DNA of 28,832 bases from a virus. Positions 5,842 to 23,733 of the stretch are shown here, one piece after another. The stretch is from the IMG/VR virus record IMGVR_UViG_3300045988_064919, positions 1 through 28,832 of that record, one strand, 5' to 3'. Within the stretch, counting starts at the first letter, position 1, and every line of letters starts with the position of its first letter. The notes beneath the pieces were generated by a model. The model was not told where the DNA came from. It ran no database searches and saw nothing but the letters and a program-made list of their open reading frames with translations. The position numbers were made by a program, and so were the translations under genes.

Positions 5842-5989
5842 GCAAATACAATTATATAAGCAAAAAATGAAACAAATATATGAAGAAGCACAGACTACAA
5901 CAGGATATAGGAAAAAAGACCTTATGCGTAAATATAGAAAAATGCAAAAGGAGTTATCAGATTGCATGATGTATTTTAAAAAGAGGTGA
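5834..5989 (+). CDS. Small basic hypothetical protein
   Basis: 51-aa ATG ORF. Its TGA (5987-5989) is in the same frame as TerS. Confidence 0.35.
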   Translation: MNKQIQLYKQKMKQIYEEAQTTTGYRKKDLMRKYRKMQKELSDCMMYFKKR

Positions 5990-5995
5990 TATAAA

Positions 5996-6364
5996 ATAGC
6001 AAGAAAAAAAATTATTAATCAAAAACAGTTTGAAGCTTTATGTGAAATTCAATGTACAAAAGATGAAATCTGTTCTGTGTTAGATGTATCGGACAAAACA
6101 TTAGACAGATGGTGTAAAGAAACATATAAAGCGTCATTCTCCGAAATTTTCAGGCAAAAAAGACAAGGAGGATGCGCAAGCCTAAGAGCAAAGCAGTGGA
6201 AATTAGCTTCTAAAAGCCCTGCTATGGCTATTTTCTTAGGTAAACAATTCTTAGGGCAAACAGATAAGGTAGAAACACATTTTGACGCTTCAGAAGTAAA
6301 TGCAATTAATAAAGCTATGATTACAGATGTAGCAAAAGAAAGAAGAATTGAAGACTTTGAATAA
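5996..6364 (+). CDS. terS: Terminase small subunit, apparent ATA start
   Basis: AGAGGTGA (5982-5989) + 6 nt + ATA GCA AGA AAA AAA (MARKK). QKQFEALCEIQCTKDEICSVLDVSDKTLDRWCKE...AMAIFLGKQFLGQ is typical TerS. The first canonical in-frame start is GTG 6077, with no SD. Confidence 0.75.
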   Translation: MARKKIINQKQFEALCEIQCTKDEICSVLDVSDKTLDRWCKETYKASFSEIFRQKRQGGCASLRAKQWKLASKSPAMAIFLGKQFLGQTDKVETHFDASEVNAINKAMITDVAKERRIEDFE

Positions 6365-7682
6365 GCCTGCGCCTTTCAATCAAAAACAATTAACTTATCT
6401 TAAAAGAACATTTGATTCATGGCTTAATGTTTTAGAAGGTGGAAAACGTGGAGGAAAGAACGTACTGAACACGTACGCATTCTGCGTTGCATTAGAAACA
6501 CATCCGGATAAGTTCCATTTGATAGCAGGAACGGATACATCATCTGCACGTGTAAATATTGGAGATTGTAATGGATACGGATTGCAGAACTATTTTGCTA
6601 ATAGATTCAAGGTAGGGAAGTATGAAGGTAAAGATTGCTACTACATCAATACAAAGGTAGGGGAAAAGGTTGTATTCTTTGCCGGTGGTGCTAAAAAAGG
6701 CTCAGAGAATGCAATACATGGTTATTCATACGGAATGGCATACGTCACAGAAGCAAACCTTTGTTGTATAGAGTTCTTACAAGAAGTGATGGATAGAACG
6801 ATAGCGTCAAGCGATAGAAAAATATTTCATGATTTAAACCCCAAAGGAAAGAATCATTGGTATTACACAGATTTCTTGAAATATCATGAGGAGCAACAGA
6901 ATAAAGATTCTACATATGGTTATAACTATGGGCATACAACCTTAGTTGACAATTATTCTTTAAGTGATGAGCAGATAAGAACGGTCTTGAAATCATACGA
7001 TAAGAATAGCGTTTATTACAAAAGAGATATAAAAGGGCAAAGGGAAGAAGCCGAAGGACTTGTGTTCCCTTATTTTGCTAATAACTGCAAACCTTATTTA
7101 TTCAAGTATCAGAGTCTAAAAAGAAAGATGAATGAAACAGGAAAAAGGTTCAGTCATTTAATCATTGGAGTTGACTTTGGAGACAATGGCTCGAAATATT
7201 CATGGCATTTAACAGGGTTTACAAATGATTGGGATTATATGTGGGCACTTGATGAAGGAGACATGGCAAAGTCAAATGCAATAGACGCAACAAAGTTCTG
7301 CAAAGCATTTGTAAGGTTCTATAAGCGTTGTATTGAATGTTACGGGTATGTAGAATGGATATTTTGCGATAGTGCTTCTAATACGCTAATAAACACGCTT
7401 AGAGCTTATTATTACGCCGAAGGATTAGACGGAAGTATAATTGCACCTGTCAAGAAGAATGAGCTTACAGACCGTCCTATAACGGTTGATAGCTTACTTG
7501 TTACAGGAAGATTGAAGATAGAAGAACATTGTAAGAATTTAATAAACGCATTAAGCGAATTGGTATGGGATGAAAAGAAAGATATTCCCAAAGATGAGAA
7601 CGTAAACAATATCAATGATGATTGGGATTCGTTCTGCTATACATTTATAACCCATAGTGGATATATAGATTTAAGGAGGTAA
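6348..7682 (+). CDS. terL: Terminase large subunit (PBSX/XtmB type)
   Basis: 444 aa. Walker-A-like LEGGKRGGKN, nuclease-half motifs (VDFGDN..., FCDSA). Sits between TerS and portal. Confidence 0.85.
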   Translation: MKTLNKPAPFNQKQLTYLKRTFDSWLNVLEGGKRGGKNVLNTYAFCVALETHPDKFHLIAGTDTSSARVNIGDCNGYGLQNYFANRFKVGKYEGKDCYYINTKVGEKVVFFAGGAKKGSENAIHGYSYGMAYVTEANLCCIEFLQEVMDRTIASSDRKIFHDLNPKGKNHWYYTDFLKYHEEQQNKDSTYGYNYGHTTLVDNYSLSDEQIRTVLKSYDKNSVYYKRDIKGQREEAEGLVFPYFANNCKPYLFKYQSLKRKMNETGKRFSHLIIGVDFGDNGSKYSWHLTGFTNDWDYMWALDEGDMAKSNAIDATKFCKAFVRFYKRCIECYGYVEWIFCDSASNTLINTLRAYYYAEGLDGSIIAPVKKNELTDRPITVDSLLVTGRLKIEEHCKNLINALSELVWDEKKDIPKDENVNNINDDWDSFCYTFITHSGYIDLRR

Positions 7683-7685
7683 GAA

Positions 7686-9089
7686 ATAGAAACATCTAAC
7701 ACACGTAGACCGTGGTTTCAGAATTACCTTAACGAAAGAGGGTATTATGTAGACACAAACGCAATTGAGATTATTGAATTGTGTAATAAGTGGTATACAA
7801 ATACCGAAACAGAATTTCATACGGCATATACCTTGAACAATGAGGAATACACGTTAGACAAAGCAGACTTTGCGAAACGTTTATGCGAAGATGACGCAAA
7901 CCTTATTGAAATCCTAGATATAAACGCAACAGATGATAGCGTTACAAATGACATTATTTCGGATATTCTAAACAAGAATAGATTTGATGTAATGTACAGG
8001 AAACAAGTTGAGCAGATGTCTGCAAATGGTACGGTAGGAGCTTATGTGACGGTATCAAATGCCGAGATTTACGAAGATGGTTCATTTAGTGGAGGAGAAA
8101 TCAAAATCAACTATTGTGATTCAATGAATATCCTTCCATTAACTGTTATCAATGATGAAATAGTTGAGGTAGCTTTCGTTGGGGTAAATTACGAAAAATT
8201 AAAAAAAGTATATGTCATGGTCATGTTCTTAAAAGGACAAGACGAAAGATATATTGCAGAAACACATTACTTTAAAGATACAGGCGAAGAAATAAAAGAC
8301 CGTGCTCAGATTGTTCAATTAGATGTTGTAAAGCCGTTTGCAATCATGAGAAATGCAAAGGTTAACAACTTACAAATGCAAGGGTACGGTTTGCCGAAGA
8401 TTTGGAGTGCAATTGCTCCTTTGAAAACAATTGATTTAACAATGACAATGTGGAATAGAGATTTGTTAAAATCCGATAAAATTGTTCTTGTGAATGAAGC
8501 ATTAATGCAGAAAGACGAGAATGGAAAGATTAAGATGAATCCACAAATGAAAAAGATATTCGTTCAGTTAGGCAGAGATAAGCTTCCGGAAGAAAAAGCT
8601 TTATGGCAGGAATACAATCCAACAGTTAGAACGGCAGAGGTTGTTCAGTCACTAGAAACGGCGTTAAGTATCTTATCAATGATGTTTGGATTCGGCACGA
8701 AGAAATACACCTTTGAAAGTGGAAGAATCGTGACGGCTACAGAATATATCGGTGAGAATCAAGACGCAATGAAAGAAGTGAATTCACAACGTAAAGAGTC
8801 TACTGCATATATTAAAGATATCATTCAAGCAATAGCGTACTTCTACGAATTAACACAAGGCAGAAAGCTTAATATCAATTCATTAGACATTTCGATTGAT
8901 TATGACGATACATATATTGAGGACAAGCAAAGCACTGCAGAATCGTTAAGAAATGACGCATTAACATTTGATATTCCAAGATTAAAGATTATGTATTTCA
9001 TGAAGCAATATGGATTCACAGAAGAAGAAGCTACAGAATTGTTGAATGAAGAAATTCAAGATGATGGAGAGGGGGATGAAGAAGAATAG
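7686..9089 (+). CDS. Portal protein (SPP1 Gp6-like), apparent ATA start
   Basis: AAGGAGGT (7673-7680) + 5 nt + ATA GAA ACA. The frame opens at 7683. The first canonical start is TTG 7779, 31 codons downstream, with no SD. Size and position fit a portal; acidic C-terminus. Confidence 0.75.
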   Translation: METSNTRRPWFQNYLNERGYYVDTNAIEIIELCNKWYTNTETEFHTAYTLNNEEYTLDKADFAKRLCEDDANLIEILDINATDDSVTNDIISDILNKNRFDVMYRKQVEQMSANGTVGAYVTVSNAEIYEDGSFSGGEIKINYCDSMNILPLTVINDEIVEVAFVGVNYEKLKKVYVMVMFLKGQDERYIAETHYFKDTGEEIKDRAQIVQLDVVKPFAIMRNAKVNNLQMQGYGLPKIWSAIAPLKTIDLTMTMWNRDLLKSDKIVLVNEALMQKDENGKIKMNPQMKKIFVQLGRDKLPEEKALWQEYNPTVRTAEVVQSLETALSILSMMFGFGTKKYTFESGRIVTATEYIGENQDAMKEVNSQRKESTAYIKDIIQAIAYFYELTQGRKLNINSLDISIDYDDTYIEDKQSTAESLRNDALTFDIPRLKIMYFMKQYGFTEEEATELLNEEIQDDGEGDEEE

Positions 9090-9892
9090 CAACTACATAT
9101 TTTCCGTTCGTATCAAGGAGCGGTGATAGATTAGTATTATATGATGCATTCAGAAGATTGTTTTCAAGCTATTTCACGAATGGTGTATTCATAGATGATT
9201 CTAGTTCAGACCATTTACGAGTTGTTAAAGCTCAAGGATTGACATTAACGGTTAAAGCAGGGAGAGCGAATATTAATGGAGCATTCTATTGGCAGAAAGA
9301 TGACGAAACCATCACACTAAAAAAGAATAGCGCTACTAAAAGCTACAATATTATTCTTAGATTGAATGATAATGACGCATACAGAAACATCACCTTAGTA
9401 GCAAGTGATATTAATGATGGAATCACAAGAAGTTATTCTATTTATGATTTAGTGTTGGCTACGGTTACAGTGACAGGCAATGCAAGTGAAATTAAAGGTT
9501 CAGATATTACAGATACAAGATTAGATTCAACACGTTGTGGAGCAGTTACGAGCGCTATTAAGAGCGTACAATCGTTGGATTTATTCACTCAAGTAACGGA
9601 GCTATTCAAGGAAATTAAGGCTCAGAATGAATCTGAAATGAATGCAAATAGAACAGAGTTCAACGATTGGTTTAAAACTGTAAAAGATACATTGGATGAG
9701 AATACGGCAGGAAAGCTATCGAACAGAATTTCAAATATTGAAAATATGATTATGGAGAATCATTTCACTACGATTCTATTAACAGAAGATGGAACACTAG
9801 TGGATGAGAGCGGTCATGAAATTCTAGCCGATTGGGCGTATGAAGTCGAATCCGGTGAAGTAGGTACCGATTGGACTTACAAGGTGAAATAG
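9086..9892 (+). CDS. Fibre/baseplate-associated structural protein (N-terminal MATTYFPF...GDR family), apparent ATA start overlapping the portal TAG
   Basis: GGAGAGGGGGA (9066-9076) then ATA GCA ACT ACA TAT TTT CCG. The ATAG overlap makes the A at 9088 the middle base of the portal stop. The first canonical start is TTG 9158. Confidence 0.55.
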   Translation: MATTYFPFVSRSGDRLVLYDAFRRLFSSYFTNGVFIDDSSSDHLRVVKAQGLTLTVKAGRANINGAFYWQKDDETITLKKNSATKSYNIILRLNDNDAYRNITLVASDINDGITRSYSIYDLVLATVTVTGNASEIKGSDITDTRLDSTRCGAVTSAIKSVQSLDLFTQVTELFKEIKAQNESEMNANRTEFNDWFKTVKDTLDENTAGKLSNRISNIENMIMENHFTTILLTEDGTLVDESGHEILADWAYEVESGEVGTDWTYKVK

Positions 9893-9903
9893 ATGTGATA
9901 CAT

Positions 9904-10439
9904 ATGAACGTTATTGAGGTTGATGTAGGAAAGACAAAGTTATTCAGTATTGGACAACAATACAATAGCAATGCATTAGTTATTCATTTTGTTAATTTGC
10001 CGAATTGAAAAAATAAATACATTTATTATAAGATTGATGACATTGAAGAAGAAATTCCTTTAGTAAGTGATTTATTTATCGTGTCTAGGCCATTAATGCT
10101 TCATAGCGGAGAAGTTAAAGCTTAAATCATCACACGTGAATGTATTCATTCCATTCGAAGCAAAAGCCGGTACGCTATTTACACAAATTACCCTACAACC
10201 GTACTGACATCAGAAAGCGAAATATCTGTTGGGTATGTAGCGGATACGGAAGCATATATCGAAAAGAGAATTAAAGAAGAGAATCAATCTCTGCAAAAAC
10301 AAATTCTCGAAATTCAAAACGCTTTAATTAGTCAGAAAATTTCGGATGTATAATCCAAGCTAAAAGCAGTGCAAAGTTGCCAATTCAGAATCTAAGAGTA
10401 TTCGGCGTTGGAACAGAAACTTGGAAAGAAATCATGTAG
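9904..10439 (+). pseudogene. Disrupted structural-module gene (in-frame TGA 10006-10008 and TAA 10123-10125, probable frameshift near 10340)
   Basis: One frame reads MNVIEVDVGKTKLFSIGQQYNSNALVIHFVNLPN*KNKYIYYKIDD...GEVKA*IITRE...YIEKRIKEENQSLQKQILEIQNALISQKISDV*. A protein-like continuation follows in another frame to TAG 10437-10439. Confidence 0.5.
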
Positions 10440-10495
10440 TAAACTAAATAAGAATATAGTTGATTAATTGAATATATAAAAAAAGGAGGAATAAC

Positions 10496-11407
10496 ATGGC
10501 AGGAAAACAAGTGACAGAGCTAGACACATTGCCTAGCTTTACAGATACAAGCTTATTGCCTGTGCACAATGGTGCAGGATTAAAAAAGGGATTATTATCA
10601 CAATTAGCGAATTATTTAGGAAACAAATTCAGTAATCCGAATTTATTGATTAATCCTGATTTTAAAATTAATCAGAGAGCAAAAAGTACTTACAGTTCTA
10701 CCGGAGCAGGATGTACGGTTGACAGATGGATTGGAACAAACGTAAAGACGGTAGTCAATTCAGATGGTACTGTATCTGTATCTTCTTTAAGTGGTACAGG
10801 ATATTATACGCAACACGAAGAAAGTATTTCATACGGAAAACATACGTATTCAATTTATGTTCAAGCAATTACCGGAACAGTAAAAGCTTTTTATAAAAGC
10901 AAGAATTCAAAAGATGTTGAATTAGGAACATTAAAGAAGGGATTGAATATCTTTACATCAGTTGATGATGGATTTAAAAGCATTTTCTTAAGCGTCGCAG
11001 GAAGTTCATCTGTAACTTTGAAATATGCAAAGGTAGAGCAAGGAACAGTAGCAACAACATTTATTGCACCTAACATGGCAGAAGAATTAATTAAATGCTA
11101 TAGATTCTATCAGATTGTGAGCATTGATATGTCAAAGATATCATTTGATGGAAATCAAGGCTTTATTTCATTTACGCCGAAAGTTAAGATGAGAAGTACG
11201 CCAACAATAGGTTATTGGACAAACAAACTTTATATGCGTAAATCCTATACAGATATGACACTTGAAGAATTGGCATTTAATAAAGCGTGGGCTTCCAGTG
11301 ATACCGTAATCGGTGTGGGGTTTAATGTTTCTTATAATAGAATATCTATGCTAACGCCAATCAATAATCATTTAGACAGATTCGAATTGGACGCGGAAAT
11401 TTATTAG
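10496..11407 (+). CDS. Tail fibre / receptor-binding-like protein (XkdV-position)
   Basis: ATG after AAAGGAGG. The N-terminus MAGKQVTELDTLPSFTDTSLLPVHNGAGLKKGLLSQLANYL is typical of fibre proteins. It is followed by XkdX-type genes. Confidence 0.5.
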   Translation: MAGKQVTELDTLPSFTDTSLLPVHNGAGLKKGLLSQLANYLGNKFSNPNLLINPDFKINQRAKSTYSSTGAGCTVDRWIGTNVKTVVNSDGTVSVSSLSGTGYYTQHEESISYGKHTYSIYVQAITGTVKAFYKSKNSKDVELGTLKKGLNIFTSVDDGFKSIFLSVAGSSSVTLKYAKVEQGTVATTFIAPNMAEELIKCYRFYQIVSIDMSKISFDGNQGFISFTPKVKMRSTPTIGYWTNKLYMRKSYTDMTLEELAFNKAWASSDTVIGVGFNVSYNRISMLTPINNHLDRFELDAEIY

Positions 11408-11416
11408 GAGGAAGTT

Positions 11417-11764
11417 ATGGAGAACGAATATAAAGTATACGTATCCTTACAAGATGGATACATCACATCTATTAATTCAGAAATCTTTTTATCAGAAGAA
11501 GAAATGTCAACTATGACAGAGATTGACAAAGGGCAAGGTGATAAATACGCACACGCACAAAGTCAATATTTAGAAAAAGGATTAGTTGATGAACACGGAA
11601 GATATAATTATAAATATGTAGAAGGTAAAGTGATTGAGGTTGCAGAAGCAGATAAACCTACAATTGAAGAACCAAAAGCATTACCAACTGAGCAAGAGAA
11701 GATTAATGCACAATTAATGTTACAAATTGCACAATTAAAAGTTCAATTGAATGGGGTGAAATAG
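11417..11764 (+). CDS. Hypothetical fibre-associated protein (XkdW position)
   Basis: ATG after AGGAGG. 115 aa. Assigned by synteny only. Confidence 0.4.
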   Translation: MENEYKVYVSLQDGYITSINSEIFLSEEEMSTMTEIDKGQGDKYAHAQSQYLEKGLVDEHGRYNYKYVEGKVIEVAEADKPTIEEPKALPTEQEKINAQLMLQIAQLKVQLNGVK

Positions 11765-11765
11765 T

Positions 11766-11885: not shown

Positions 11886-11901
11886 GCTTTAAAAGCGTTT
11901 T

Positions 11902-11923
11902 AAAGGGCTTAAATGCCCTTTTT
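11902..11923 (+). terminator. Rho-independent terminator closing the fibre cassette
   Basis: AAAGGGC-TTAAAT-GCCCTTT followed by a T run. Confidence 0.65.
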
Positions 11924-11939
11924 ATATAGGAGCATATAA

Positions 11940-13121
11940 ATGTTAAGTGAAGAAGAACAAATGGAACAAGAACGCAAAGAACGGCAAGAAAAAAGAAAGC
12001 AAGAGCGCTTGCAAAAGCAAATTGAGAAAAGAAGAAAGCTTGAAGAAAGAGAACGAAAAAGTGTAAAGCGTGCAAGTGTATTTGAATTAGGAATGATGAT
12101 ATTCGTGTCTAATAAAATTCGTGAAGTTTTAGAAAAAGCCACCGAAGAAAATGCAAAATTTAATGAGATATTGGCAAAATCACTCGTGGATTTGCGTAAA
12201 TTCACAAAAAAAGAATCAAAAAGCCTAAAAAAAGATGTAATCAATGAATCAAAAAAGGACTTTGAAGAAAATAAGAATGGAACACTTGATTTAATTGAAG
12301 TTGGAAGTGGAAAGCCTATCAAAAAGAAGCTCAAGATAGATTTATATATTAGTCCACAAGACGAGACTTCAAAGCGTTGGAAGAAATATATCAAGACAAG
12401 TGCTAACACGTATGCAATCGGTAAAGATAAACTACCGGTATTCTTTACAAAAGTAGTTCAAGAAGAAGTTAAGAATGTAGTAGGTGGTAAATGCACAATT
12501 GATGATTCTTGTAGAAAAGCTATTTCTAAATTAGCAGACAGTGGCGTAAAGATTGTGGAATATGATACAGGAGTTAAAAGAAATGTAGATGTGTGGGTAA
12601 GGCAACAAATGCAGTACGCAGAAAAGGAATCATCACAAGAAATTAACAATAAATACGCTAAAGATATGGGAGTTACTGTATTCGAGTTTGACGCTCACGC
12701 AAACGCACGTCCAAGTCATAAGAAGTGGCAAGGGAAACGCTACGACACGCAAGGGAAACTATATCCTAGCTTGTTTCAGTTAACACATGGAGAAGAAAAA
12801 GATTACGGGTGTAGGCACTTTGCTCAACCTGTTTGGGATGTTGATATGCCTTACGCTTACACAAAAGAGCAGTTAAAGAATATTGATACGAAACCTTTCA
12901 TGTTTCAAGGAAAAGAATATGAAGGATATGAAGCTAGACAGTATCAAAGAGAACTAGAAAGAAATATCAGAGCGTTGAAAAGGGAAATAATCTTATTGGA
13001 CAATCAAGGATTAGGCAGTACAGAAGCCAGAATCAAGCTAAAACACGCAAATGCAACGTATAAAGCTTTCAGTTCTGAAATGGGAGACAGAGTTCACAAC
13101 GATAGGCTTAGAATTGGCTAA
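11940..13121 (+). CDS. Head morphogenesis protein (SPP1 gp7 / Mu F-like) with Glu/Lys/Arg-rich N-terminus
   Basis: FDAHANARPSHKKWQGKRYD resembles the gp7/MuF motif. Normally encoded directly after the portal gene. Confidence 0.65.
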   Translation: MLSEEEQMEQERKERQEKRKQERLQKQIEKRRKLEERERKSVKRASVFELGMMIFVSNKIREVLEKATEENAKFNEILAKSLVDLRKFTKKESKSLKKDVINESKKDFEENKNGTLDLIEVGSGKPIKKKLKIDLYISPQDETSKRWKKYIKTSANTYAIGKDKLPVFFTKVVQEEVKNVVGGKCTIDDSCRKAISKLADSGVKIVEYDTGVKRNVDVWVRQQMQYAEKESSQEINNKYAKDMGVTVFEFDAHANARPSHKKWQGKRYDTQGKLYPSLFQLTHGEEKDYGCRHFAQPVWDVDMPYAYTKEQLKNIDTKPFMFQGKEYEGYEARQYQRELERNIRALKREIILLDNQGLGSTEARIKLKHANATYKAFSSEMGDRVHNDRLRIG

Positions 13122-13816: not shown

Positions 13817-14686
13817 ATACCAAATGAAATTGCATTAGCTAAAACGTATGTCTCAAATTTGGATGAGGTATATAAGTCAGCTTCAGTTACAGGTGATTTA
13901 AATGCAGACGCTACAATGGTAAGAGCAGGAGCAAATGCAAAAGAAATCATCTATCCACAAATTTCTGTTAACGGTTTAGGAAACTACGATAGAAACAGTG
14001 GCTATACAGGTAACTCAGTTAAGTTAGAATGGAAAACTGCTACATTCGACTATGATAGAGGAACTAAAATCTCTGTTGATACTCAAGACAATGCAGAATC
14101 AATGAATATTGCATTCGGTAGGGCAGGAGCGGAATTAATGCGAACAAAGGTAGCGCCGGAAGCGGACGCTTACACATTCGCTAAAATTGCAAGCACAACA
14201 GGAATCACAAAGGTTTCAGAAGATTATACAGGTGCAGAAGAATTCTTGAGCGCATTGTTAACGGCTATCACTAAAATGGATGAGGATGAAGTTCCTAGCG
14301 AACAACGTATCTTGTATTCAACACCAACATTATTAAATAGCGTTAAGGCGTTGGACACTTACAAATCTCGTGAAGCTTTACAAGGATTTGCAAAGGTTGT
14401 TCCTGTACCTGCTAGCCGTTTCTATACAAAAATCAAATTGTTGAGTGGAAAAGATACAGAGTTAGAAGGCGGATACGAAAAAGCGGAGGATGGACACGTA
14501 ATCAACTTCTTGATTGTTTACAAACCTGCCGTTATGAAATGGGATAAACACACCGTTTCAAATGTAATTCCGGCAAGCAATAACATTGAATCAGATTCAG
14601 ATGTATTGAAATATCGTAAGTATGGAATCGTTGACGTATACCAAAATAAGGTAGCAGGTATTTACTTATCTGCTAGTGCTAAGTAA
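13817..14686 (+). CDS. Major capsid protein, apparent ATA start
   Basis: AAGGAGG (13801-13807) + 9 nt + ATA CCA AAT GAA. The frame opens at 13814. The first canonical start is TTG 13859, with no SD. N-terminus ...YVSNLDEVYKSASVTGDL and the position after the scaffold gene fit a capsid protein. Confidence 0.7.
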   Translation: MPNEIALAKTYVSNLDEVYKSASVTGDLNADATMVRAGANAKEIIYPQISVNGLGNYDRNSGYTGNSVKLEWKTATFDYDRGTKISVDTQDNAESMNIAFGRAGAELMRTKVAPEADAYTFAKIASTTGITKVSEDYTGAEEFLSALLTAITKMDEDEVPSEQRILYSTPTLLNSVKALDTYKSREALQGFAKVVPVPASRFYTKIKLLSGKDTELEGGYEKAEDGHVINFLIVYKPAVMKWDKHTVSNVIPASNNIESDSDVLKYRKYGIVDVYQNKVAGIYLSASAK

Positions 14687-14790
14687 TGACAGTGGAAATT
14701 GGATGGGGTTATCCTTCTAAAGTTGAAAATCCTAAAAAAGGTAAACCTCAAACAAAAAAAGAGGAAGCTAAACCTAAAAAAGAAAAATAG
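14686..14790 (+). CDS. Possible 34-aa Lys-rich protein
   Basis: The ATG shares one base with the capsid stop codon (TAATG). MTVEIGWGYPSKVENPKKGKPQTKKEEAKPKKEK. Confidence 0.3.
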   Translation: MTVEIGWGYPSKVENPKKGKPQTKKEEAKPKKEK

Positions 14791-15157: not shown

Positions 15158-15573
15158 TAGGATTCTTTGAAGATTCAATCACGCTTGTAAATCACTACTA
15201 TGATACATTGACAAGAGAAGATAGGTTTCAAGCTTCTATTCTTGATAAATGTATGTGGAGACAATCAACTGTTAGAACTGCAAACGGTAATATTCTGAGC
15301 ATAGCCACATCCACAAATATTACCATTCTATATCGTGATGGATATGTTGAACCTTACGCATACGCAAAGCTTTCAAATGATGAGAAACAAAAACACTTCA
15401 CATTAAATACGGATAAGACAGATTTCGTGTTCTTTGGAAAAGTGAAAGAAGACTTATCTAGTATTAAATCAATAAACGAAGCTAAGAAGAAATACAAATG
15501 GACAACAATCCAAAGTGTTACAGATTGTACGAATGTCGATATGTTGAAGCACTGGGAGGTTGTTTGTCAATAG
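15154..15573 (+). CDS. Head closure / minor capsid-type protein
   Basis: ATGA overlap with the preceding gene. Assigned by synteny. Confidence 0.45.
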   Translation: MIGFFEDSITLVNHYYDTLTREDRFQASILDKCMWRQSTVRTANGNILSIATSTNITILYRDGYVEPYAYAKLSNDEKQKHFTLNTDKTDFVFFGKVKEDLSSIKSINEAKKKYKWTTIQSVTDCTNVDMLKHWEVVCQ

Positions 15574-15575
15574 GA

Positions 15576-15932
15576 ATGAAAGTCAAACTTGATGTTGAAT
15601 CAATTCCCCAAATTAAACAATCAAGAGGACTTGAAGAACGTGGACGAGTGCAACGTATGATTGATAACGAAGTTATTAGGCTTATGACGCCTTATGTTCC
15701 GTATAGGAACGGTCCTTTAGCAAGGTCTTCATATAGAATGACACAAATTGGTAGTGGATTAGTAAAGCAAGGTGGGCCAAGTGCTCCATACGCAAGACGT
15801 TGGTATTACAACAAAGAGGAAGTTGAATTCGTTGGTGGCAAGGTAGACCATTGGTTTGATAAAGCTATGCGAAACGGAGGAGCAAAAGAAATCTTGAAAG
15901 AAGTACAACAAATGATAGGAGACGGAGAATGA
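15576..15932 (+). CDS. Tail-completion (HK97 gp10 / Minor_capsid_1-like) protein
   Basis: ...MTPYVPYRNGPLARSS...APYARRWYYN...DHWFDKAM resembles this family. ATG 15576 follows the previous stop. Confidence 0.5.
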   Translation: MKVKLDVESIPQIKQSRGLEERGRVQRMIDNEVIRLMTPYVPYRNGPLARSSYRMTQIGSGLVKQGGPSAPYARRWYYNKEEVEFVGGKVDHWFDKAMRNGGAKEILKEVQQMIGDGE

Positions 15933-16348
15933 CAGTATCAAAAGCATTGATTCAATGGTTATATGGCTATGGAAATATACAGATAGATGAACGTATTGAA
16001 ACGGATGTTTTAGCGCAACAAGCTATCTCTTATGCGCTATACAAAGAACCTAATGCAATTGTAGATACATACATTGATGGCTCTCAAATGCGAACTGAAT
16101 ACTACACGTTTCTAGCACGCAGGAATACACAAATTGAAGCCGAAAGGCAAGACAACAATTCTTTCTTAGAAGAATTAGAAAATTGGATTGATGAAAAGAA
16201 CTTAAACGGAGAATTACCACAACTAGACGGAAACAGATATTGCGATAATGTTTCCGTTTCAAGTGGTTTATATCTATACACGAACGAGGATAGTCAAGCG
16301 GTGTATGCCTTGACAATTCAAATTAAATACAGAAAGGAGTTTAATTAA
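15929..16348 (+). CDS. Tail terminator-like head-tail joining protein
   Basis: ATGA overlap. Assigned by its position before the major tail gene. Confidence 0.4.
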   Translation: MTVSKALIQWLYGYGNIQIDERIETDVLAQQAISYALYKEPNAIVDTYIDGSQMRTEYYTFLARRNTQIEAERQDNNSFLEELENWIDEKNLNGELPQLDGNRYCDNVSVSSGLYLYTNEDSQAVYALTIQIKYRKEFN

Positions 16349-16854
16349 TGGCAACAGCAGGAACAGAAGTAGCAACAGGGCAGACAGTCAAGAAATATAT
16401 GATTGGATTGTTCTTACAAATGGGAGAAGGTTATAAACGAGTTAAGAAATCCACGACTTTAGACATTTCTTTCAACAGTGAAACTGAAACGTATGATTTT
16501 ATCGCAGATAAGAACCCAACTGAATCATTAAAGAGTTATTCACCTAATATTTCGCAAGATTTAACAATGATTAAAGGCGAAGATGACTTTGAATACATTT
16601 ACGAACAAATGATGAAATCCGTTCCAAACAATGAAGAAGTGAACACAAAAGCATTACTAGTATTCATGTTTGACGGGGACAAGACAAAGGGGTACAAAGC
16701 TTGGGAAGTTGACGCTAAATTAATCTTTGATACATTAAGTGGTGTCGATTCCAAAATCAATTTCAACATTAACTTTGCGAGCGATATTCGTGTCGGTACT
16801 GCAAAGGTAGCAGATGGAGCAGTAACATTTACAGAAGGAACATCCAACGTATAA
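16348..16854 (+). CDS. Major tail protein
   Basis: ATG after AAGGAG. 168 aa. Assigned by position upstream of the chaperones and tape measure. Confidence 0.55.
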   Translation: MATAGTEVATGQTVKKYMIGLFLQMGEGYKRVKKSTTLDISFNSETETYDFIADKNPTESLKSYSPNISQDLTMIKGEDDFEYIYEQMMKSVPNNEEVNTKALLVFMFDGDKTKGYKAWEVDAKLIFDTLSGVDSKINFNINFASDIRVGTAKVADGAVTFTEGTSNV

Positions 16855-17795: not shown

Positions 17796-17815
17796 AAAAG
17801 GAGGTGGCAAATTGA

Positions 17816-20395
17816 ATATCGGACGGAACATTAAAGTTTGATACAAAGATTGATACAAGTGGTCTAGAGAATGGTATTAAATCTGTAAAGGTTGTATCAA
17901 ATGAAGCTACAAATGAAATCAAGGAAACTTCAAAAGCAATTGATAAGCTAGGTTCTGATGGTTCAAAAGCACCACCAAAGATTACTGATGAATTAAGAAA
18001 GCTAAATGATGAGCAAAAGAATACACAAACAGAAACGCAAGAAACAGGTTCAAAGTTTGATGTCTTTAAGCAAGTAGGAAACAGTGCATTAGATTCGATT
18101 CAAGGTGGATTTGATGGATTACTAGATAAGATTCAGAATATTAGTCCGGAAGCAACTACAATCACTGAAACCTTGACAGGATTAGGAGTTGGAGGTGTTG
18201 TAGGTGTTACTGCCGTAGCAGGAGCTATCGGTGGAATGGCATTAGCAATTAAGACAGGTGTCAATCAAGCTACTGAATTAGATGACGCTATGGCTAAATT
18301 CCAAGCTCAGACAGGTGCTTCAAGCAATGAAATGAGCAAATTTAAAAACATTGCTCGTGATGTTTGGTCTAATAATTTTGGTGAAGATATTTCAGATGTT
18401 GCCGATATGATGGCACGTGTCAAGCAACAAATGCAAGGCATAAGTGATGTCGATTTAAAGGATGTTACTGAGGATTTATTGACATTAAGAGACACATTCG
18501 GAATGGACGAGAACGAAACATTAAGAGGTGCTCAACAATTAATGAAGCAGTTCGGAATTAGTTCTAAAGAAGCTTTTGACCTTATGGCTACAGGTGCTCA
18601 GAATGGTTTAAACAAATCAGATGAGTTAGGCGACAACATTTCAGAATACTCCGGTAAATTCAAGCAAGCAGGATATTCGGCAGAAGAATACTTCCAATTA
18701 ATGCAGAATGGATTAGATGGTGGAGCTTATAACCTTGATAAAGTTAACGACGCAATCAATGAAGTTACCACAAGGTTAGTTGATGGAAATATCGAAGGAG
18801 CTTTAGATAGTTTCGATACAAAGACGCAAGATGTATTCAAGGCATGGCAAGAAGGAAGAAAAACTCAGAAAGATGTTGTGAATGCGATTGTAGAAGATAT
18901 TTCAAGAACTACAAATCAACAAGAGAAGTTGAATAAAACGGCAACGGCTTTCGGTACAATGGGAGAAGATTTTAACGCCGGATTTATTGAATCCTTAACT
19001 ACGGTAGGAAATAAATATAAAGATGTAGAAGGAGCAATGGATAAAGTCAAAGAAATTGCAAATGGTGGCTTAAAGAACGCTTTAAGTGGCTTAGGACGTG
19101 CATTTCTTGATTCATTTACTCCAATAGGCGAACTTATTACCCCTATTCTTGCAGGTATCATTGGATTGATTACATTAGCTATACAAGGTATTCAACAAGG
19201 GTTTGCAAAAGTTGGTGATGTAATTTCAAATGTATTGAGTAAGATTGATACAAGTGGAATTACAGAATTGACAAGTCAAGTTTCTGAAGTGTTAGCTCCT
19301 GCGTTTAAAGAAGTAAAAAAAGCAATTGACGAAATGGAAGTTGCGCTTGAACCTATCGCAAAAGAAATCTTAGGTAAAATTGGTAGCGCAATTCAAAATG
19401 TTGTTAACCAAGCTCAAAAGATTCTTAGCGTTATAGGACCACCAATTCTAGCAATCATTAAGAAGATTATTCAAACGGTAGTTAGCATGATTCCTGTAAT
19501 AACATCTATCCTTCAAGTTGTTGGAAGTGTGGTAAGTGGAACCATTTCATTTATAACTATGGTTGTGACATATGTTGGGACTGCGATTGCGACAATACTA
19601 GGATTTATCATGCCTATTGTTCAAATTGTAGCTACAATCGTAGCGAATATTTGGTATGTAATATTAACGGTTGCTCAGAATATTTGGAGCAAAGTTAGTG
19701 AAGTAGTTATTGCGATTATTGGATTCGTAAACAATTTATTTAAGACGGTTTCGGATATCATAAACAATATTTGGAGCAAGATTCAAGATACAATGAACAG
19801 AGTCGGCGATAAAGTTAAAGGTGTTATTGATAATATCAATAAATATTTCAATGATGTTAAGAGTACTGTTTCTGATGTATTCAATGGCATTTGGTCTAAG
19901 GTTCAAGGTGTGATGGACAATGTAGGAAATAAAATTTCAAATGTTCTACAAGGAATACAGAATTCATGGAATGGCTTGACATGGTTTGTAAGTGGCGTAT
20001 TTAGCGGAATTGAAGGAGCAGTTAGTTCATTAGTTGGAAGCGTAAAAGGAATGGTAAATGGTGTTATCGGTGGCATTAACGGTGCAATCGGTATCATCAA
20101 CAAGATTCCCGGAGTGCATATTGGAAGGATTCCAAAATTAGAGCGTGGTGGTGTATTGAAGCGCGGTCAAGTTGGTTTACTTGAAGGTAATGGAGCAGAA
20201 GCAGTTGTACCTTTAGAAAGAAACAAAGCGTGGATTCGTGCCGTAGCTAAAGATATGGCTCAAATCATGCCAAGCGTTACAACGAATAACAACGGACAAA
20301 CAATTAACTTCTATAATAAAGCTCAAAGTCCGGATGAAATCGCTAGAATGTTGCGAATGCAAGCAAGATATGGATATGGAGGTGTAGTTCAATAG
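17816..20395 (+). CDS. Tape measure protein, apparent ATA start
   Basis: AAGGAGGTGG (17798-17807) + 8 nt + ATA TCG GAC GGA. ATA is the first codon after an in-frame TGA. 119 sense codons follow before the first canonical start (TTG 18173). Long helical/TM-rich body. Confidence 0.8.
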   Translation: MSDGTLKFDTKIDTSGLENGIKSVKVVSNEATNEIKETSKAIDKLGSDGSKAPPKITDELRKLNDEQKNTQTETQETGSKFDVFKQVGNSALDSIQGGFDGLLDKIQNISPEATTITETLTGLGVGGVVGVTAVAGAIGGMALAIKTGVNQATELDDAMAKFQAQTGASSNEMSKFKNIARDVWSNNFGEDISDVADMMARVKQQMQGISDVDLKDVTEDLLTLRDTFGMDENETLRGAQQLMKQFGISSKEAFDLMATGAQNGLNKSDELGDNISEYSGKFKQAGYSAEEYFQLMQNGLDGGAYNLDKVNDAINEVTTRLVDGNIEGALDSFDTKTQDVFKAWQEGRKTQKDVVNAIVEDISRTTNQQEKLNKTATAFGTMGEDFNAGFIESLTTVGNKYKDVEGAMDKVKEIANGGLKNALSGLGRAFLDSFTPIGELITPILAGIIGLITLAIQGIQQGFAKVGDVISNVLSKIDTSGITELTSQVSEVLAPAFKEVKKAIDEMEVALEPIAKEILGKIGSAIQNVVNQAQKILSVIGPPILAIIKKIIQTVVSMIPVITSILQVVGSVVSGTISFITMVVTYVGTAIATILGFIMPIVQIVATIVANIWYVILTVAQNIWSKVSEVVIAIIGFVNNLFKTVSDIINNIWSKIQDTMNRVGDKVKGVIDNINKYFNDVKSTVSDVFNGIWSKVQGVMDNVGNKISNVLQGIQNSWNGLTWFVSGVFSGIEGAVSSLVGSVKGMVNGVIGGINGAIGIINKIPGVHIGRIPKLERGGVLKRGQVGLLEGNGAEAVVPLERNKAWIRAVAKDMAQIMPSVTTNNNGQTINFYNKAQSPDEIARMLRMQARYGYGGVVQ

Positions 20396-21261
20396 ATTTA
20401 AATAAAGTTAGAATCATTGTCCGTAGGGATGATAGCAAAGAATTTGAAATCGACAACAAAAGATGGAGAATACCATCTAGTGACGGATTAGATGGATTTG
20501 ATTATGCAACACCTTCATATACTACGCAAGACAACGCATTCGGAAATGGTGCTAGATTAATCGGTTCACGTATTCCAACGAAAGAAAGAAGCGTGAAAGC
20601 TATCTTTAAGGGCGCACTAGAAGAAAAAAGAGAAGAAAGGGAGAAGCTACGGCGCTTCTTCCAATATTCTCATGTCTTTGATGTAATAGTTGAGTATATG
20701 GGAGAAAAGAAATATTGCAGAGGTCGTTTGTATGCTTATAGCTTACCCACTGTTAACATTTATAAAGATTTAGAGCTTAATTTCACGATTCTATGTACGC
20801 AACCTTTATTGCTTTCATATGATGATTTCGCAAGGAATATTGCAGAAATTGGCGAAGGTTTAGCGTTCAATTTTGAAATACCGGAAACAGGCGTAAACTT
20901 TGGAACATTTACATTCGCTAGAGAAATCTATATTGATAATCAAGGCGATACAGAAACATACTGTAGAGCCGTTATTGAAGCGTTTGGAGAGGTAACAAAT
21001 CCGAAACTATTCAATAAAGATAAATATATTCGTGTATTAGATACGCTACACAATGGTGATGTGTTAGAAATTGATTTAGTTTCAGAACCTATTTCGATTA
21101 AAAAGAATGGTGTGAATTGTATCGGCAAAGTTGACAGAACATCATCATTCAATGATATGACGATTCAGTTAGGCGAGAATATCATAGGATATACTGCCGA
21201 CAATGGAGATACGAATCTAGCTTGCACCGTTTACTATAATGAAAGGTATTTAGGTTTATAA
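20392..21261 (+). CDS. Distal tail protein (Dit), apparent ATA start overlapping the tape-measure TAG
   Basis: GGAGGTG (20378-20384) + 7 nt + ATA GAT TTA. The ATAG overlap shares bases with the TMP stop. 67 codons precede the first canonical start (GTG 20593). Confidence 0.65.
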   Translation: MDLNKVRIIVRRDDSKEFEIDNKRWRIPSSDGLDGFDYATPSYTTQDNAFGNGARLIGSRIPTKERSVKAIFKGALEEKREEREKLRRFFQYSHVFDVIVEYMGEKKYCRGRLYAYSLPTVNIYKDLELNFTILCTQPLLLSYDDFARNIAEIGEGLAFNFEIPETGVNFGTFTFAREIYIDNQGDTETYCRAVIEAFGEVTNPKLFNKDKYIRVLDTLHNGDVLEIDLVSEPISIKKNGVNCIGKVDRTSSFNDMTIQLGENIIGYTADNGDTNLACTVYYNERYLGL

Positions 21262-21263
21262 GT

Positions 21264-22277
21264 ATGTCTTATTTCGGATTAGATAAAGATTTCAATATTG
21301 TTACACATCTAGCACCTTACAACGTGCAGTGGAATCGGCGATATTATGAAACAGGAGATTTCGAGATTTATATCGATATAGGTCAGTACTCAAACGACAT
21401 TAAATATATTTATTCTACTGATGATAAAGAGTTAGGAATCGTAGAAATACCGCATTATTCAGTTTCAAACAACACGAAACAAATGTTGCTAAAAGGTTCT
21501 TTCTTTGAAAAGATTCTAGCAGATGATTGTATTTATCCTACATTCTCAAGCAGTGGAAAGATTGTTGACGTGATCAAAAAGCTATTAGACAAGTATTGCT
21601 CATGGAAAATGGGGTATAGATATGATGAATCCATTACCGATAGAGTAGACTTTCAAGAAACAGGAGCAAACCTTGACGAGAAGCTTTATGAGTTGTTATA
21701 TCCGTTAGAATTGTCGTTCCGCATAGAATATGACTATGTATCGAGTACGTTCACATTCGTGTTATATCGTGGTCGTGACTTAACTCAGAACAATGCAGAT
21801 GGAAACAACTTTGTCACATTCTCTACAGAATTCGGAAACATTGAAGAACCGGACGTTATGATTGACTCAAGTAAATACAAGAACTATGCAATTGTTTGTG
21901 GTGAAGGGAAGTCAGAAGAACGTATATACGTTGAATATGACGCTAGAATAGATAAGAATGAGCGAATTAAGAAATTGTTCGTAGACGCACGTTCTGAGCG
22001 CATGGGGGACGATATTACACTTGATGAATATAAGAAGATATTGATTCAAAAAGGGATTGAAAAACTAGCGGATTGTCAAATTGAAGAGAATGTAAATTTC
22101 GGATTGAATACAGATTCATATGAATACAAAGTTGATTTTGATTTAGGTGATAAGGTGGATGTGATTGTCACAGATATTGGATTAGTAATGACGGCTAGAA
22201 TTAGAAATATATTCGAAGTCATTAAGAGTGGATATAGAACCCTGGAATTAGAGGTTGATAATTTAAAAATCATGTAA
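21264..22277 (+). CDS. Siphovirus Gp37-like tail tip protein
   Basis: The N-terminus MSYFGLDKDFNIVTHLAPYNVQWNRRYYETGDFEIY resembles the Gp37-like family. Sits after Dit. Confidence 0.55.
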   Translation: MSYFGLDKDFNIVTHLAPYNVQWNRRYYETGDFEIYIDIGQYSNDIKYIYSTDDKELGIVEIPHYSVSNNTKQMLLKGSFFEKILADDCIYPTFSSSGKIVDVIKKLLDKYCSWKMGYRYDESITDRVDFQETGANLDEKLYELLYPLELSFRIEYDYVSSTFTFVLYRGRDLTQNNADGNNFVTFSTEFGNIEEPDVMIDSSKYKNYAIVCGEGKSEERIYVEYDARIDKNERIKKLFVDARSERMGDDITLDEYKKILIQKGIEKLADCQIEENVNFGLNTDSYEYKVDFDLGDKVDVIVTDIGLVMTARIRNIFEVIKSGYRTLELEVDNLKIM

Positions 22278-22290
22278 AGGAGTGAATTTA

Positions 22291-22797
22291 ATGAAAAAGA
22301 AAGATGGAGGATTTAAGCAAATGGCAAGAAATATGTATTTTCTAGACACAATGAATGCAATAGGTGGTGTAGCCGTAGCCGTATTGACATACGTATTAGG
22401 TGAACATTGGTATTTATTCGCATTCTTCTTATTCATGAACGTTGTGGATTACATTACAGGGTGTATGAAATCGACTATCGCTCACAAGCTAAACAGTAAT
22501 AAAGGGTGGATTGGAGTTCTTAAAAAGCTAGGATATTGGATTATGATTGTGGTTGCGTTTGCATTCAGTGTATTCTTAGTGGAAATTGGCAAAATGTTGG
22601 GAATTGATTTCCGTGTAACTACATTATTAGGTTGGTTTGTACTATCTTCTCTATGCATTAACGAGGTGCGTAGTATTATTGAGAACCTTGTACAATGTGG
22701 ATATAACGTACCAAAACCATTAACTAAAGGATTAGAAGTAGCAGATAAACTCATTAACGAAGAACAAGACAATGACGAATCAAAAGCAGATGATTGA
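22291..22797 (+). CDS. Holin (phage_holin_4_1 / TcdE-like)
   Basis: Several TM helices. FMNVVDYITGCMKS...GWIGVLKKLGYWIMIVVAF...INEVRSIIENL. ATG 22291 after AAAGGAG (the track starts at GTG 22282). Confidence 0.75.
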   Translation: MKKKDGGFKQMARNMYFLDTMNAIGGVAVAVLTYVLGEHWYLFAFFLFMNVVDYITGCMKSTIAHKLNSNKGWIGVLKKLGYWIMIVVAFAFSVFLVEIGKMLGIDFRVTTLLGWFVLSSLCINEVRSIIENLVQCGYNVPKPLTKGLEVADKLINEEQDNDESKADD

Positions 22798-22813
22798 ATC
22801 ACAATTACAAAAT

Positions 22814-22866
22814 ATTCAATTAAAATTCGAGCAGGAATCTCCTGACTTTAGTCAGGAGTAGTTGAC
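22814..22866 (+). repeat. 53-bp perfect direct repeat, copy 2 (hairpin 22839-22858)
   Basis: Identical to 3243-3295. Lies between the holin and the endolysin. Confidence 0.95.
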
Positions 22867-22939
22867 GAAGAAAGAGAAATGGTAAGAGATAAATTAAGAG
22901 AAATGTTCTCAGTATATCAGTAAAAAAAACTCTTTTATA

Positions 22940-22948
22940 TGCTATAAT
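22940..22948 (+). promoter_or_regulatory. Extended -10 promoter TGCTATAAT upstream of the endolysin
   Basis: Perfect TGnTATAAT. The same 9-mer recurs at 23805-23813. Confidence 0.5.
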
Positions 22949-22971
22949 TGGTACATAAAGGAGGGTTTTTA

Positions 22972-23733
22972 ATAAATTATCAAAGTTTTAAAGAAGCCGT
23001 ATTAGGCAAAGTATTCGACATTGACGGATACTATGGTGCTCAATGTTGGGACGGATTCGCAAAGTACATGATTGACTTAGGATATCAAGCTATCAATTGC
23101 ACGACAAGTGGTTTTGTTAAAGACATTTGGAACAATCGAAAAACAAATGGTATCTTGAATTATTGCAATGAGGTATCAATCATGCAACCGGGAGACATTG
23201 CAGTTTTTAAAGAAGTAGCAGGAATTACGCCATACAGTCATATCGCAATCTTTGATTCTGATATTGACGGAAAGCAAGGATGGTTCTTGGGTCAAAACCA
23301 AGGTGGAAAAGGTGGAGCATTCAATTTAATTAAATTGCCTTATTATGCAATCTTTGATACTGCGTTTAGACCTAAATGTTTCGCAAATGCAGGAGCAGTT
23401 AAACCAAGTATTCCACAACCTGTAGAAGCGATTGACCAAATTTTGCATTCAGGAAGCTATGTAACATCCGTACAAATGAAGATTGGCAATCAAGGATTGA
23501 AACAAATCAATAGCGATTTATGCGCATACCTTGAACAATTAGGTGGTTGGTTTCCAATTCGTCTGGTTGATAAAGTTCGTAATTCTGATGGTTACAATGA
23601 CAATGTATTGCATACAACAAATGCGATTGTCTATGTTACAAGAATTCGCGTTGATGAAGTCGACGTACAAAAGAACCTTGCGAAAATCGGTGAAATTTGG
23701 GTAAATTGTGGCCCATTAATTGAAGTGGCATAA
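22972..23733 (+). CDS. Endolysin: N-terminal CHAP domain plus C-terminal wall-binding region, apparent ATA start
   Basis: AAAGGAGGG (22957-22965) + 6 nt + ATA AAT TAT CAA. The TTG 22948 of the track lies inside the -10 box and upstream of the SD. CHAP motifs GYYGAQCWDGF and SHIAIF. Confidence 0.75.
   Translation: MNYQSFKEAVLGKVFDIDGYYGAQCWDGFAKYMIDLGYQAINCTTSGFVKDIWNNRKTNGILNYCNEVSIMQPGDIAVFKEVAGITPYSHIAIFDSDIDGKQGWFLGQNQGGKGGAFNLIKLPYYAIFDTAFRPKCFANAGAVKPSIPQPVEAIDQILHSGSYVTSVQMKIGNQGLKQINSDLCAYLEQLGGWFPIRLVDKVRNSDGYNDNVLHTTNAIVYVTRIRVDEVDVQKNLAKIGEIWVNCGPLIEVA

Follow-up and report, generated by a model that had tools for sequence, protein, structure and literature searches.

AUA start codons and an initiator-like tRNA with the anticodon UAU in a clade of low-GC gut phages

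How does a phage come to begin its capsid, tail and lysis genes with AUA? The question is raised by a stretch of viral DNA of 28,832 nucleotides (positions 1 to 28,832 of IMG/VR record IMGVR_UViG_3300045988_064919; the whole stretch is called the window here), in which a preliminary description had reported ATA codons behind strong Shine-Dalgarno (SD) sequences at the starts of seven genes, those for TerS, the portal, a fibre-like protein, the major capsid protein (MCP), the tape measure protein (TMP), Dit and the endolysin. The phage is siphovirus-like, with a guanine-plus-cytosine (GC) content of 30-38%, and it belongs with a related clade of low-GC gut phages. We found that AUA serves regularly as a start codon, in about 25-50% of the genes of this phage and of that clade. 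The phage also encodes a single tRNA that resembles a bacterial initiator and has the anticodon UAU; on the strength of sequence comparison we think it likely that this tRNA acts as an initiator and makes AUA a cognate start codon.

All seven ATA codons (5996, 7686, 9086, 13817, 17816, 20392 and 22972) proved, when checked by script, to be in frame with a long open reading frame (ORF), to lie 0-15 codons past the upstream in-frame stop and to follow a strong SD by 5-9 nt. The accompanying claim that no ATG, GTG or TTG separates stop from ATA holds at six of these sites; ahead of the endolysin ATA there is a TTG (22948), eight codons upstream and without an SD. At the first six sites the next canonical starts lie 27, 31, 24, 14, 119 and 67 codons downstream, as had been described, and the two overlaps with upstream stops are also correct. 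The endolysin does not start at its next ATG (23182), because its CHAP domain begins at residue 18. Two genes missing from the original list, at 15570 and 28236, bring the firm ATA starts in the window to nine, with ambiguous cases at 3850 and 1525 (Table 1); ATA starts make up 9-11 of the 45 plus-strand genes in our curated gene list. In the public gene calls on the same contig (ena:ERZ27261778:k99_79064) every ATA gene is truncated to a downstream TTG or GTG. A count of in-frame codons that follow an SD core at a distance of 5-10 nt, no more than 20 codons from the upstream stop, gave 13 ATG, 8 ATA, 1 ATT and no ATC for the window. ATA stands out from its near-cognate siblings ATT and ATC.

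Table 1. Positions in the window of the tRNA gene, the hairpins beside it and the genes with firm, ambiguous or exchanged ATA starts.
Feature	Coordinates	Strand	Start codon and remarks
Nucleotide-kinase-like gene	1525..1875	+	ATA candidate start; ambiguous owing to ATG 1531
Small early gene	3850..4044	+	ATA, SD AGGAGGTG, 6 nt spacing; ambiguous, ATG two codons downstream
Hairpin and T run ending upstream early block	4354..4370		5' of tRNA; scan places it on - strand
Initiator-like tRNA, anticodon UAU	4394..4469	+	Rfam RF00005, 48.8 bits
Terminator-like hairpin	4552..4570	+	~85 nt 3' of tRNA
TerS	5996..6364	+	ATA, SD GAGGTGA, 6 nt spacing
Portal	7686..9089	+	ATA, SD AAGGAGGT, 5 nt spacing
Head (fibre-like) protein	9086..9892	+	ATA overlaps portal stop as ATAG; PHROG 1220
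Major capsid protein (MCP)	13817..14686	+	ATA, SD AAGGAGG, 9 nt spacing; PHROG 422
Minor head/connector protein	15570..15932	+	ATA, SD GGAGGT, 9 nt spacing; absent from preliminary description
Probable major tail protein	16348..16854	+	ATG in window; ATA in nearly all close relatives
Tape measure protein (TMP)	17816..20395	+	ATA, SD AAGGAGGTGG; N-terminal extension 119 codons
Dit (distal tail protein)	20392..21261	+	ATA overlaps tape-measure stop as ATAG
CHAP-domain endolysin	22972..23733	+	ATA, SD AAAGGAGGG, 6 nt spacing
RusA-like resolvase (early/middle)	28236..28616	+	ATA; PHROG 1682 match from residue 2; absent from preliminary description

The close relatives of the window phage comprise 38 IMG/VR records, with portals 95-98% identical to that of the window, and about 30 metagenome contigs, all independently assembled. 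Across some 60 of these assemblies ATA is invariant in the genes for the portal, the head protein, MCP, TMP and RusA and in those at 15570 and 3850, while the spacers and flanks vary, even by insertions and deletions (indels). At 15570 the relatives all keep the ATA, while the ATG two codons further on is exchanged for ATA, ATT or ATC; a nearby TTG is replaced too. The RusA ATA is the same in 24 relatives that represent 15 different contexts, spacer-indel ones included. At 3850 the ATA persists through 43 contexts in which the spacer varies, and this gene probably starts there; the gene at 1525 possibly starts at its ATA as well, and in one relative this ATA is replaced by ATG and the downstream ATG by ACG. 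The preliminary description had argued that the ATAs are not G-to-A consensus errors, and their conservation in dozens of independent assemblies bears this out.

ATG and ATA change places at these sites. The probable major tail gene at 16348 has ATG in the window and ATA in 24 other contexts among its close relatives, and in the more distant L154 too; the two codons are therefore interchangeable at starts. The gene at 10496 has ATA in three contexts among close relatives. Where relatives have a different region upstream of TerS, ATG stands exactly at the codon of ATA 5996 and is followed by the same codons. Thus, counting 16348, 10496 and TerS together, the swap has occurred in both directions among close relatives.

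The stretches that run from the ATAs to the following canonical starts are coding, because the sites at which they vary among relatives concentrate at the third codon position (42:21:121 at positions 1:2:3, p = 2e-20). The homologue alignment that the preliminary description had proposed as a check supports its view that these extensions are real N-termini: family profiles align from residue 2-3, with residue 3 of MCP at position 3 of PHROG 422 and residue 3 of the protein from 9086 at position 8 of PHROG 1220, and relatives have ATG at the homologous codon. The portal of L078, which is 44% identical (GC 46%), begins with an ATG at the corresponding point, and its length of 466 aa compares with 467 aa in the window. 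The match to PHROG 1220, a head-protein family, qualifies the label of fibre-like that had been given to the gene at 9086.

A connection between these starts and a UAU tRNA had been suspected in the preliminary description, and it is upheld by the initiator-like build of the tRNA and by the way in which tRNA and ATA starts co-occur among portal relatives. The gene lies outside the interval with which that description was concerned, at 4394-4469, and is the sole tRNA gene of the window. ARAGORN reported no tRNA in the window; the gene was recovered by Rfam, with a match to 4394-4466 that we extended to 4469 for the encoded CCA. The anticodon loop CUUAUUA gives the anticodon UAU and a U at position 37. 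The tRNA has an A1xA72 mismatch, G2:C71, C3:G70, A11:U24, G30:C40, U31.G39 and A73, its D arm reads GAGCAG..GUAGCUC and its acceptor 3' side ends in GCA-A-CCA. The elbow of the window type is odd, with a D loop (AGUAGUA) that has no GG, a variable 1-nt bulge in the T stem and a T loop of UGCAAAU or UGCAAUU, whereas the variant in L224 has normal D and T arms. The tRNA looks like a small transcription unit of its own ahead of the packaging and late genes, because a terminator-like hairpin lies 3' of it.

Aligned with tRNA(fMet), the phage tRNA has the D arm, variable loop, acceptor 3' side and A73-CCA in common with it. The comparison used what we take to be the E. coli tRNA(fMet) sequence, which is nearly identical to an Arsenophonus gene from the genome scan described below. 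Bacterial tRNA(fMet) is like the phage molecule in its non-Watson-Crick 1:72 with A72, in G2:C71, C3:G70, A11:U24, G30:C40 and A73, and in the D arm GAGCAG...GUAGCUC, and some phage variants also keep its AGGUC variable loop and UCGG-/-CCGA anticodon stem. It is unlike the phage tRNA in several respects, for the latter is phage-encoded, has UAU and not CAU, U37 and not A37, U.G at 31:39 and often A:U at 29:41, and in most lineages has A or G at position 1 and not C. Judged from its sequence, the tRNA is initiator-derived and initiator-like and is not a tRNA(fMet): it has the 1:72 mismatch and G2:C71/C3:G70/A11:U24 of bacterial initiators, without the CAU anticodon or the full motif of three G:C pairs (3-GC) in the anticodon stem.

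The same tRNA occurs in diverged lineages, which came to light in a portal-profile search of IMG/VR and in tRNA pattern scans of IMG/VR and metagenomes. Our scan pattern had its D-loop gap set to include the 2-nt gap of the family. The L060/L107 lineage is 49% identical to the window in TerL, 62% in the portal and 54% in MCP, and the portals of the L153 and L156 groups are 54-59% identical to that of the window. Each tRNA-bearing lineage (portal relatives L107, L153-159 and L166, at 54-62% identity) has exactly one tRNA, with the loop CUUAUUA, and wherever TerS was located (L060/L107, L154, L157) the tRNA lies immediately upstream of a TerS gene that starts with ATA. A looser anticodon-arm pattern gave mostly chance matches, L224 being the only new member. 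We aligned eight phage variants and two initiators of canonical type as cloverleafs: 93.8% of the cells are paired, ten pairs show compensatory change, and G2:C71, C3:G70, A11:U24 and G30:C40 are invariant. The anticodon stem is UCGGU/GCCGA in some relatives, a single base away from the canonical UCGGG/CCCGA, and the compensatory CUAGU/GCUAG in others. Of the 3-GC motif only G30:C40 is invariant, 29:41 being A:U or G:C and 31:39 U.G.

The first acceptor pair behaves differently from the rest. It is unpaired in 10/10 aligned sequences, with A, C or G and never U at position 1, as against 98% pairing in the rest of the acceptor stem. L060/L107 has C at position 1, L153 and L156 have G, and the window type and L224 have A, opposite an A at position 72 in every case. 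In bacteria the 1:72 mismatch, which is C1xA72 in most of them, is a determinant of formylation and of exclusion from EF-Tu, and G2:C71, C3:G70 and A11:U24 are secondary determinants for the formyltransferase, according to work from the RajBhandary laboratory. The retention of the mismatch with three different bases at position 1 points to selection on the mismatch itself. Elongator tRNA-Ile(UAU), of the Mycoplasma mobile type or that of the B. subtilis tilS-bypass mutant, is similar in that UAU reads AUA; those elongators, however, have a paired 1:72 and a purine at 37, and the phage tRNA has neither, the mismatch being universal and U37 present in all lineages.

Cellular genomes hold little that is comparable. 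We scanned 185,579 species, each represented by a single genome, with a pattern that would miss the L153 and L156 variants, and found four initiator-like UAU tRNAs only (L081, L085, L088 and L091, from Arthrobacter, Terracidiphilus, an Arsenophonus endosymbiont and Collinsella). These have C34U and are otherwise like canonical tRNA(fMet), with the three G:C pairs mostly kept (L085 has two of them); each could be a variant, a pseudogene or a sequencing error. Initiator-like UAU tRNAs were also seen in unrelated viral or metagenome contigs with GC contents from 27% to 68% (L039/L040, L099/L152, L142, L110, L096/L150 and L127/L148); C1xA72 or A1xA72 occurs in some of them, and the loop CUUAUUA in L142 as well.

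Among portal relatives the ATA starts go with the tRNA. Starts were counted by a strict rule: the ORF had to be 60 codons or longer, the start no more than 20 codons from the upstream stop, and an SD match of 6 nt or more had to precede the start by 4-11 nt. Eight tRNA-bearing loci gave 33 ATG, 35 ATA, 5 ATT and no ATC, and seven tRNA-less portal relatives (L160-165 and L078; 43-46% identity, GC 40-47%) gave 70 ATG, no ATA, 3 ATT and 2 ATC (Fisher's exact test, ATA against ATG+GTG+TTG, p = 7e-14). No tRNA was found in the tRNA-less loci by ARAGORN, nor by Rfam within 10 kb of the portal. The only Rfam match at gathering level in these relatives was a gut-2 sRNA at L160:3697-3743 (RF02990, 42.6 bits). 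An automatic caller that assigned one start to each ORF was dropped, since internal ATT, ATC and ATA codons after chance SD-like 5-mers inflate its background. In L107 and L154 ATA is at least as frequent as ATG.

The pattern can be followed gene by gene. In the lineages with the tRNA, orthologues of the portal, 15570, TMP and TerS genes begin with ATA, whereas L161 and/or L165 have ATG. Thus the portal gene starts with ATA in L107, L154 and L157 and with ATG in the tRNA-less L078, L161 and L165; that at 15570 has ATA in the same three and ATG in L161 and L165; and the TMP N-terminus I-x-D-G-T-L is conserved with ATA in L154 and L157, L165 having ATG. MCP has ATA in the window, L107 and L154, with no match in L157, L161 or L165, and Dit has ATA in the window, L154 and L157, with no match in L161 or L165. 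The scaffold, adaptor and tail completion genes have ATG in all the lineages compared.

The base before the start codon also fits the phage tRNA. In four representative genomes (the window, L107, L154 and L157) A precedes 30 of 34 ATA starts as against 19 of 38 ATG starts (p = 8e-4), and most ATA starts without it are doubtful sites. An in-frame TGA or TAA stands directly before 12 of the 34 and contributes to this preference; the second codon after ATA is often GCA or GCU. Position 37 of tRNA(fMet) pairs with the mRNA base at -1, and an A37U initiator is tolerated in E. coli (Höllerer and Jeschek, PMC10018350). As in that quadruplet pairing, U37 of the phage tRNA is complementary to the base at -1 in 30/34 sites; in E. 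coli, though, A37 pairs with U(-1) to modest effect, whereas the phage pair is inverted and, to judge from these statistics, nearly obligatory. The invariant U37 would fit a four-base A-AUA/UAUU interaction that strengthens a codon-anticodon helix composed entirely of A:U pairs.

These observations suggest how initiation at AUA may proceed, with charging, formylation and use in the P site being steps that we infer from established initiator biology. The single phage tRNA would have been derived from a bacterial tRNA(fMet) by a change of anticodon from CAU to UAU. It would be charged by a host synthetase, most likely the isoleucyl enzyme (IleRS) and possibly the methionyl one (MetRS). Recognition by MetRS depends on C34, and a tilS-bypass mutant of B. 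subtilis, which Fabret reportedly described in 2011, is said to show that a Firmicute IleRS is able to charge a UAU tRNA; isoleucine is for these reasons the most likely first residue. The 1:72 mismatch, with G2:C71, C3:G70 and A11:U24, should make the charged tRNA a substrate of the host formyltransferase and keep it off EF-Tu. IF2 would then deliver it to the P site of the 30S subunit, with G30:C40 as what survives of the 3-GC motif. Watson-Crick pairing of the anticodon with all three bases of AUA would let IF3 accept the complex as cognate, and U37 probably makes a fourth pair, with the A found before nearly all of these ATAs. Scans of the window ORFs with PHROG and Pfam revealed no synthetase, formyltransferase or initiation factor encoded by the phage. 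All genes of the window are open under table 11, with no in-frame reassigned stops, and the tRNA is not a suppressor.

Several points weigh against an initiator role for the phage tRNA. Its 3-GC motif is incomplete, with U.G at 31:39 and, in the window type, A:U at 29:41; in E. coli, G30:C40 alone can suffice for 3-GC function (Shetty et al., PMC5389676). The abnormal elbow of the window type may matter for proofreading, given that the initiator elbow is reported to contact IF3 (PMC9723500). The co-occurrence of tRNA and ATA starts is effectively a single evolutionary event, because the tRNA-bearing genomes form one clade, and it is confounded with the GC content (33-35% in the tRNA-bearing clade against 40-47% in the tRNA-less relatives) and with the host. 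The contigs L039/L040, L099, L142, L148, L150 and L110, with UAU tRNAs of their own, show no evident ATA starts in their short flanks, and we claim no general rule beyond the clade on that account. Finally, AUA had been called an extremely poor initiator in known bacteria, and this was too sweeping: AUA starts that follow extended SDs in S. aureus work at about 10-30% of the AUG level with the host initiator (bioRxiv 10.1101/2025.06.19.660503). The phage tRNA may for this reason not be strictly required.

That last point leads to an alternative, which we consider unlikely, in which host fMet-tRNA(CAU) reads ATA by a third-position mismatch with the help of an extended SD, and the phage tRNA serves as an elongator Ile-tRNA or as a decoy or replacement against tRNA-targeting defences. 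The ATA genes do have the stronger SDs, with a mean pairing energy of -13.0 kcal/mol as against -8.2 kcal/mol for ATG/GTG/TTG genes (p = 6e-4), and initiation of the S. aureus kind may supply a basal level here. Host starts at AUA or AUU (S. aureus infC, ccpN and citZ; AUU in E. coli infC) likewise have an unusually long SD before AUA; they are, however, few, poorly read and attenuating, whereas the clade has ATA in a quarter to half of its genes, MCP among them, together with a cognate tRNA, and the window itself falls well outside such rarity. Inside genes, AUA remains an ordinary isoleucine sense codon read by the host and accounts for 116 of the 606 isoleucine codons of the window (19%), so a decoder of AUA could be useful in elongation. 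The 1:72 mismatch, G2:C71, C3:G70 and A11:U24 that four lineages keep are nevertheless required in an initiator and avoided by an elongator that depends on EF-Tu, and one that reads ANN codons is expected to have a purine at 37 and not U. Phage tRNAs with altered anticodon loops are reported to evade host nucleases (PMC10264068), and that would suit a decoy. The fall of ATA starts to zero exactly where the tRNA is absent speaks against this alternative.

A second alternative, that the host itself initiates at AUA through an unusual initiator tRNA of its own or a relaxed IF3, the phage merely mirroring this usage with an acquired copy of the host tRNA, seems to us improbable. The difference in GC between tRNA-bearing and tRNA-less clades means that their hosts probably differ, which leaves room for such a host property. 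The four cellular UAU tRNAs from the scan of 185,579 species, whose pattern would miss the L153 and L156 variants, however, include none with CUUAUUA and none from a comparable low-GC genome, and the phage gene is the sole retained tRNA, syntenic, in lineages with 50-60% identical proteins along with which it has diverged. That the ATAs are consensus errors for ATG, or that translation really begins at the downstream TTG or GTG codons chosen by standard gene callers, is scarcely credible, since the same ATAs recur in lineages with saturated synonymous divergence, the downstream starts have no SD and would leave gaps of 40-380 nt, and a systematic AATG-to-AATA error is ruled out by the half of the ATG starts that have a preceding A and are intact in the same genomes.

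What would the phage gain from a cognate AUA start? The preliminary description had presented the ATA set as the key late genes, and this did not stand up. The packaging-to-lysis block does hold 8/9 of the firm ATA starts, but RusA and probably 3850 are early genes, and 14 late genes start with ATG or TTG, including those for TerL, scaffold, adaptor, tail completion, Tal and holin. The placement of the tRNA gene at the front of the packaging operon would suit a feed-forward scheme in which virion and lysis proteins depend on the phage tRNA, and so would the conservation of ATA at TerS, portal, MCP, TMP, Dit and endolysin. A simple late-gene switch fits only partly, given the early ATA genes, the many late ATG genes and the exchanges of ATG with ATA. 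As a tentative extension we raise the possibility of a private, orthogonal channel, in which an Ile-charged, formylated initiator reads a four-base A-AUA signal, synthesis of virion and lysis proteins depends on the tRNA, and that synthesis is insensitive to depletion or cleavage of fMet-tRNA(CAU) by the host. If so, capsid, portal, TMP and endolysin would begin with (formyl-)isoleucine and not methionine, and expression of the phage tRNA at the head of the packaging operon could act as a timing device or a lysogeny safeguard.

The genes around these starts are those of a siphovirus-like phage. PHROG and Pfam scans divide the window into a replication/recombination block (SSB, Sak, RusA, NinB-like), the packaging-to-lysis block (TerS, TerL, portal, head proteins, scaffold, MCP, connectors, TMP, Dit, Tal, holin, CHAP endolysin) and a divergent repressor module. 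A megablast search of INPHARED gave no close match to the late region, and only distant portal homologues were found there. A portal search of GTDB species genomes found no prophage, so that the host was not identified from that source, and a walk leftward toward host DNA along the 78-kb relative L157 met further phage-like early genes only. That 78-kb relative has a reverse-transcriptase-like ORF with a YxDD motif (L157:451-1749) and a long one-strand run of small early genes, including one for a pentapeptide-repeat protein (L170:1-10000).

Other features of the window also deserve mention. A gene for a ParB-like N-terminal domain is split over two overlapping ORFs (4837-5013 and 4992-5414), which match PHROG 620 at profile positions 5-50 and 52-108 respectively; this could be a frameshift, a pseudogene or a programmed shift. 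The 603 nt that follow the head-protein gene (9893-10495) hold no credible gene, only coiled-coil-like fragments in another frame. The profile of the head-protein family is 574 aa long and is covered only at positions 8-246, and the stretch probably represents what decay has left of a longer head-fibre gene. A homologue of the minor head gene at 11940 follows the portal gene directly in L107 and L154, and the 9086-11764 block of the window appears to be absent from both. A 34-aa Lys/Pro-rich ORF (14686-14790) overlaps the capsid stop as TAATG, and its ATG is kept in 26 contexts; because this ORF is conserved in relatives, the adaptor start at TTG 14699 was ruled out in favour of ATG 14810.

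Non-AUG starts are ordinarily read by the CAU initiator through mismatches, and we know of no natural initiator tRNA with an anticodon other than CAU, such initiators being known to us as laboratory constructs only. A full-text search of open-access papers and bioRxiv found no natural non-CAU initiator tRNA in phages. Reportedly, phage suppressor tRNAs recode stop codons, with the recoded codon concentrated in structural and lysis genes (this is said to be the finding of Borges et al. in Nat Microbiol in 2022). The present case is similar in that a phage-borne tRNA alters codon reading and late synthesis may depend on it; it is dissimilar in that recoding there concerns elongation and reassigned stops, and here initiation under the standard code, with early genes also affected. 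Engineered initiators (amber; tRNA(fMet) with AAC and others) give orthogonal initiation in E. coli, and in them, too, an altered anticodon turns a non-AUG codon into a cognate start (bioRxiv 10.1101/524249, 10.1101/2021.05.25.445580; PMC11744186). Those described there are laboratory constructs, whereas the phage tRNA is natural and conserved across diverged lineages, with dozens of matching starts.

The public models of portal, capsid, TMP and Dit for this clade are wrong at the N-terminus, because standard gene callers truncate every ATA gene. An initiator of this kind, paired with its start codon, would be a ready-made orthogonal system for engineering. If the phage tRNA does make AUA cognate, it would be a natural case in which a dedicated second initiator reassigns a start codon, and would match, on the side of initiation, the recoding of stop codons by phages. 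It would raise the question of which changes in the 3-GC motif, position 37 and the elbow a working initiator tolerates, and would bring natural formyl-isoleucine starts into consideration. It would also raise the prospect that phages use private decoding to time their late genes or to insulate them from the host.

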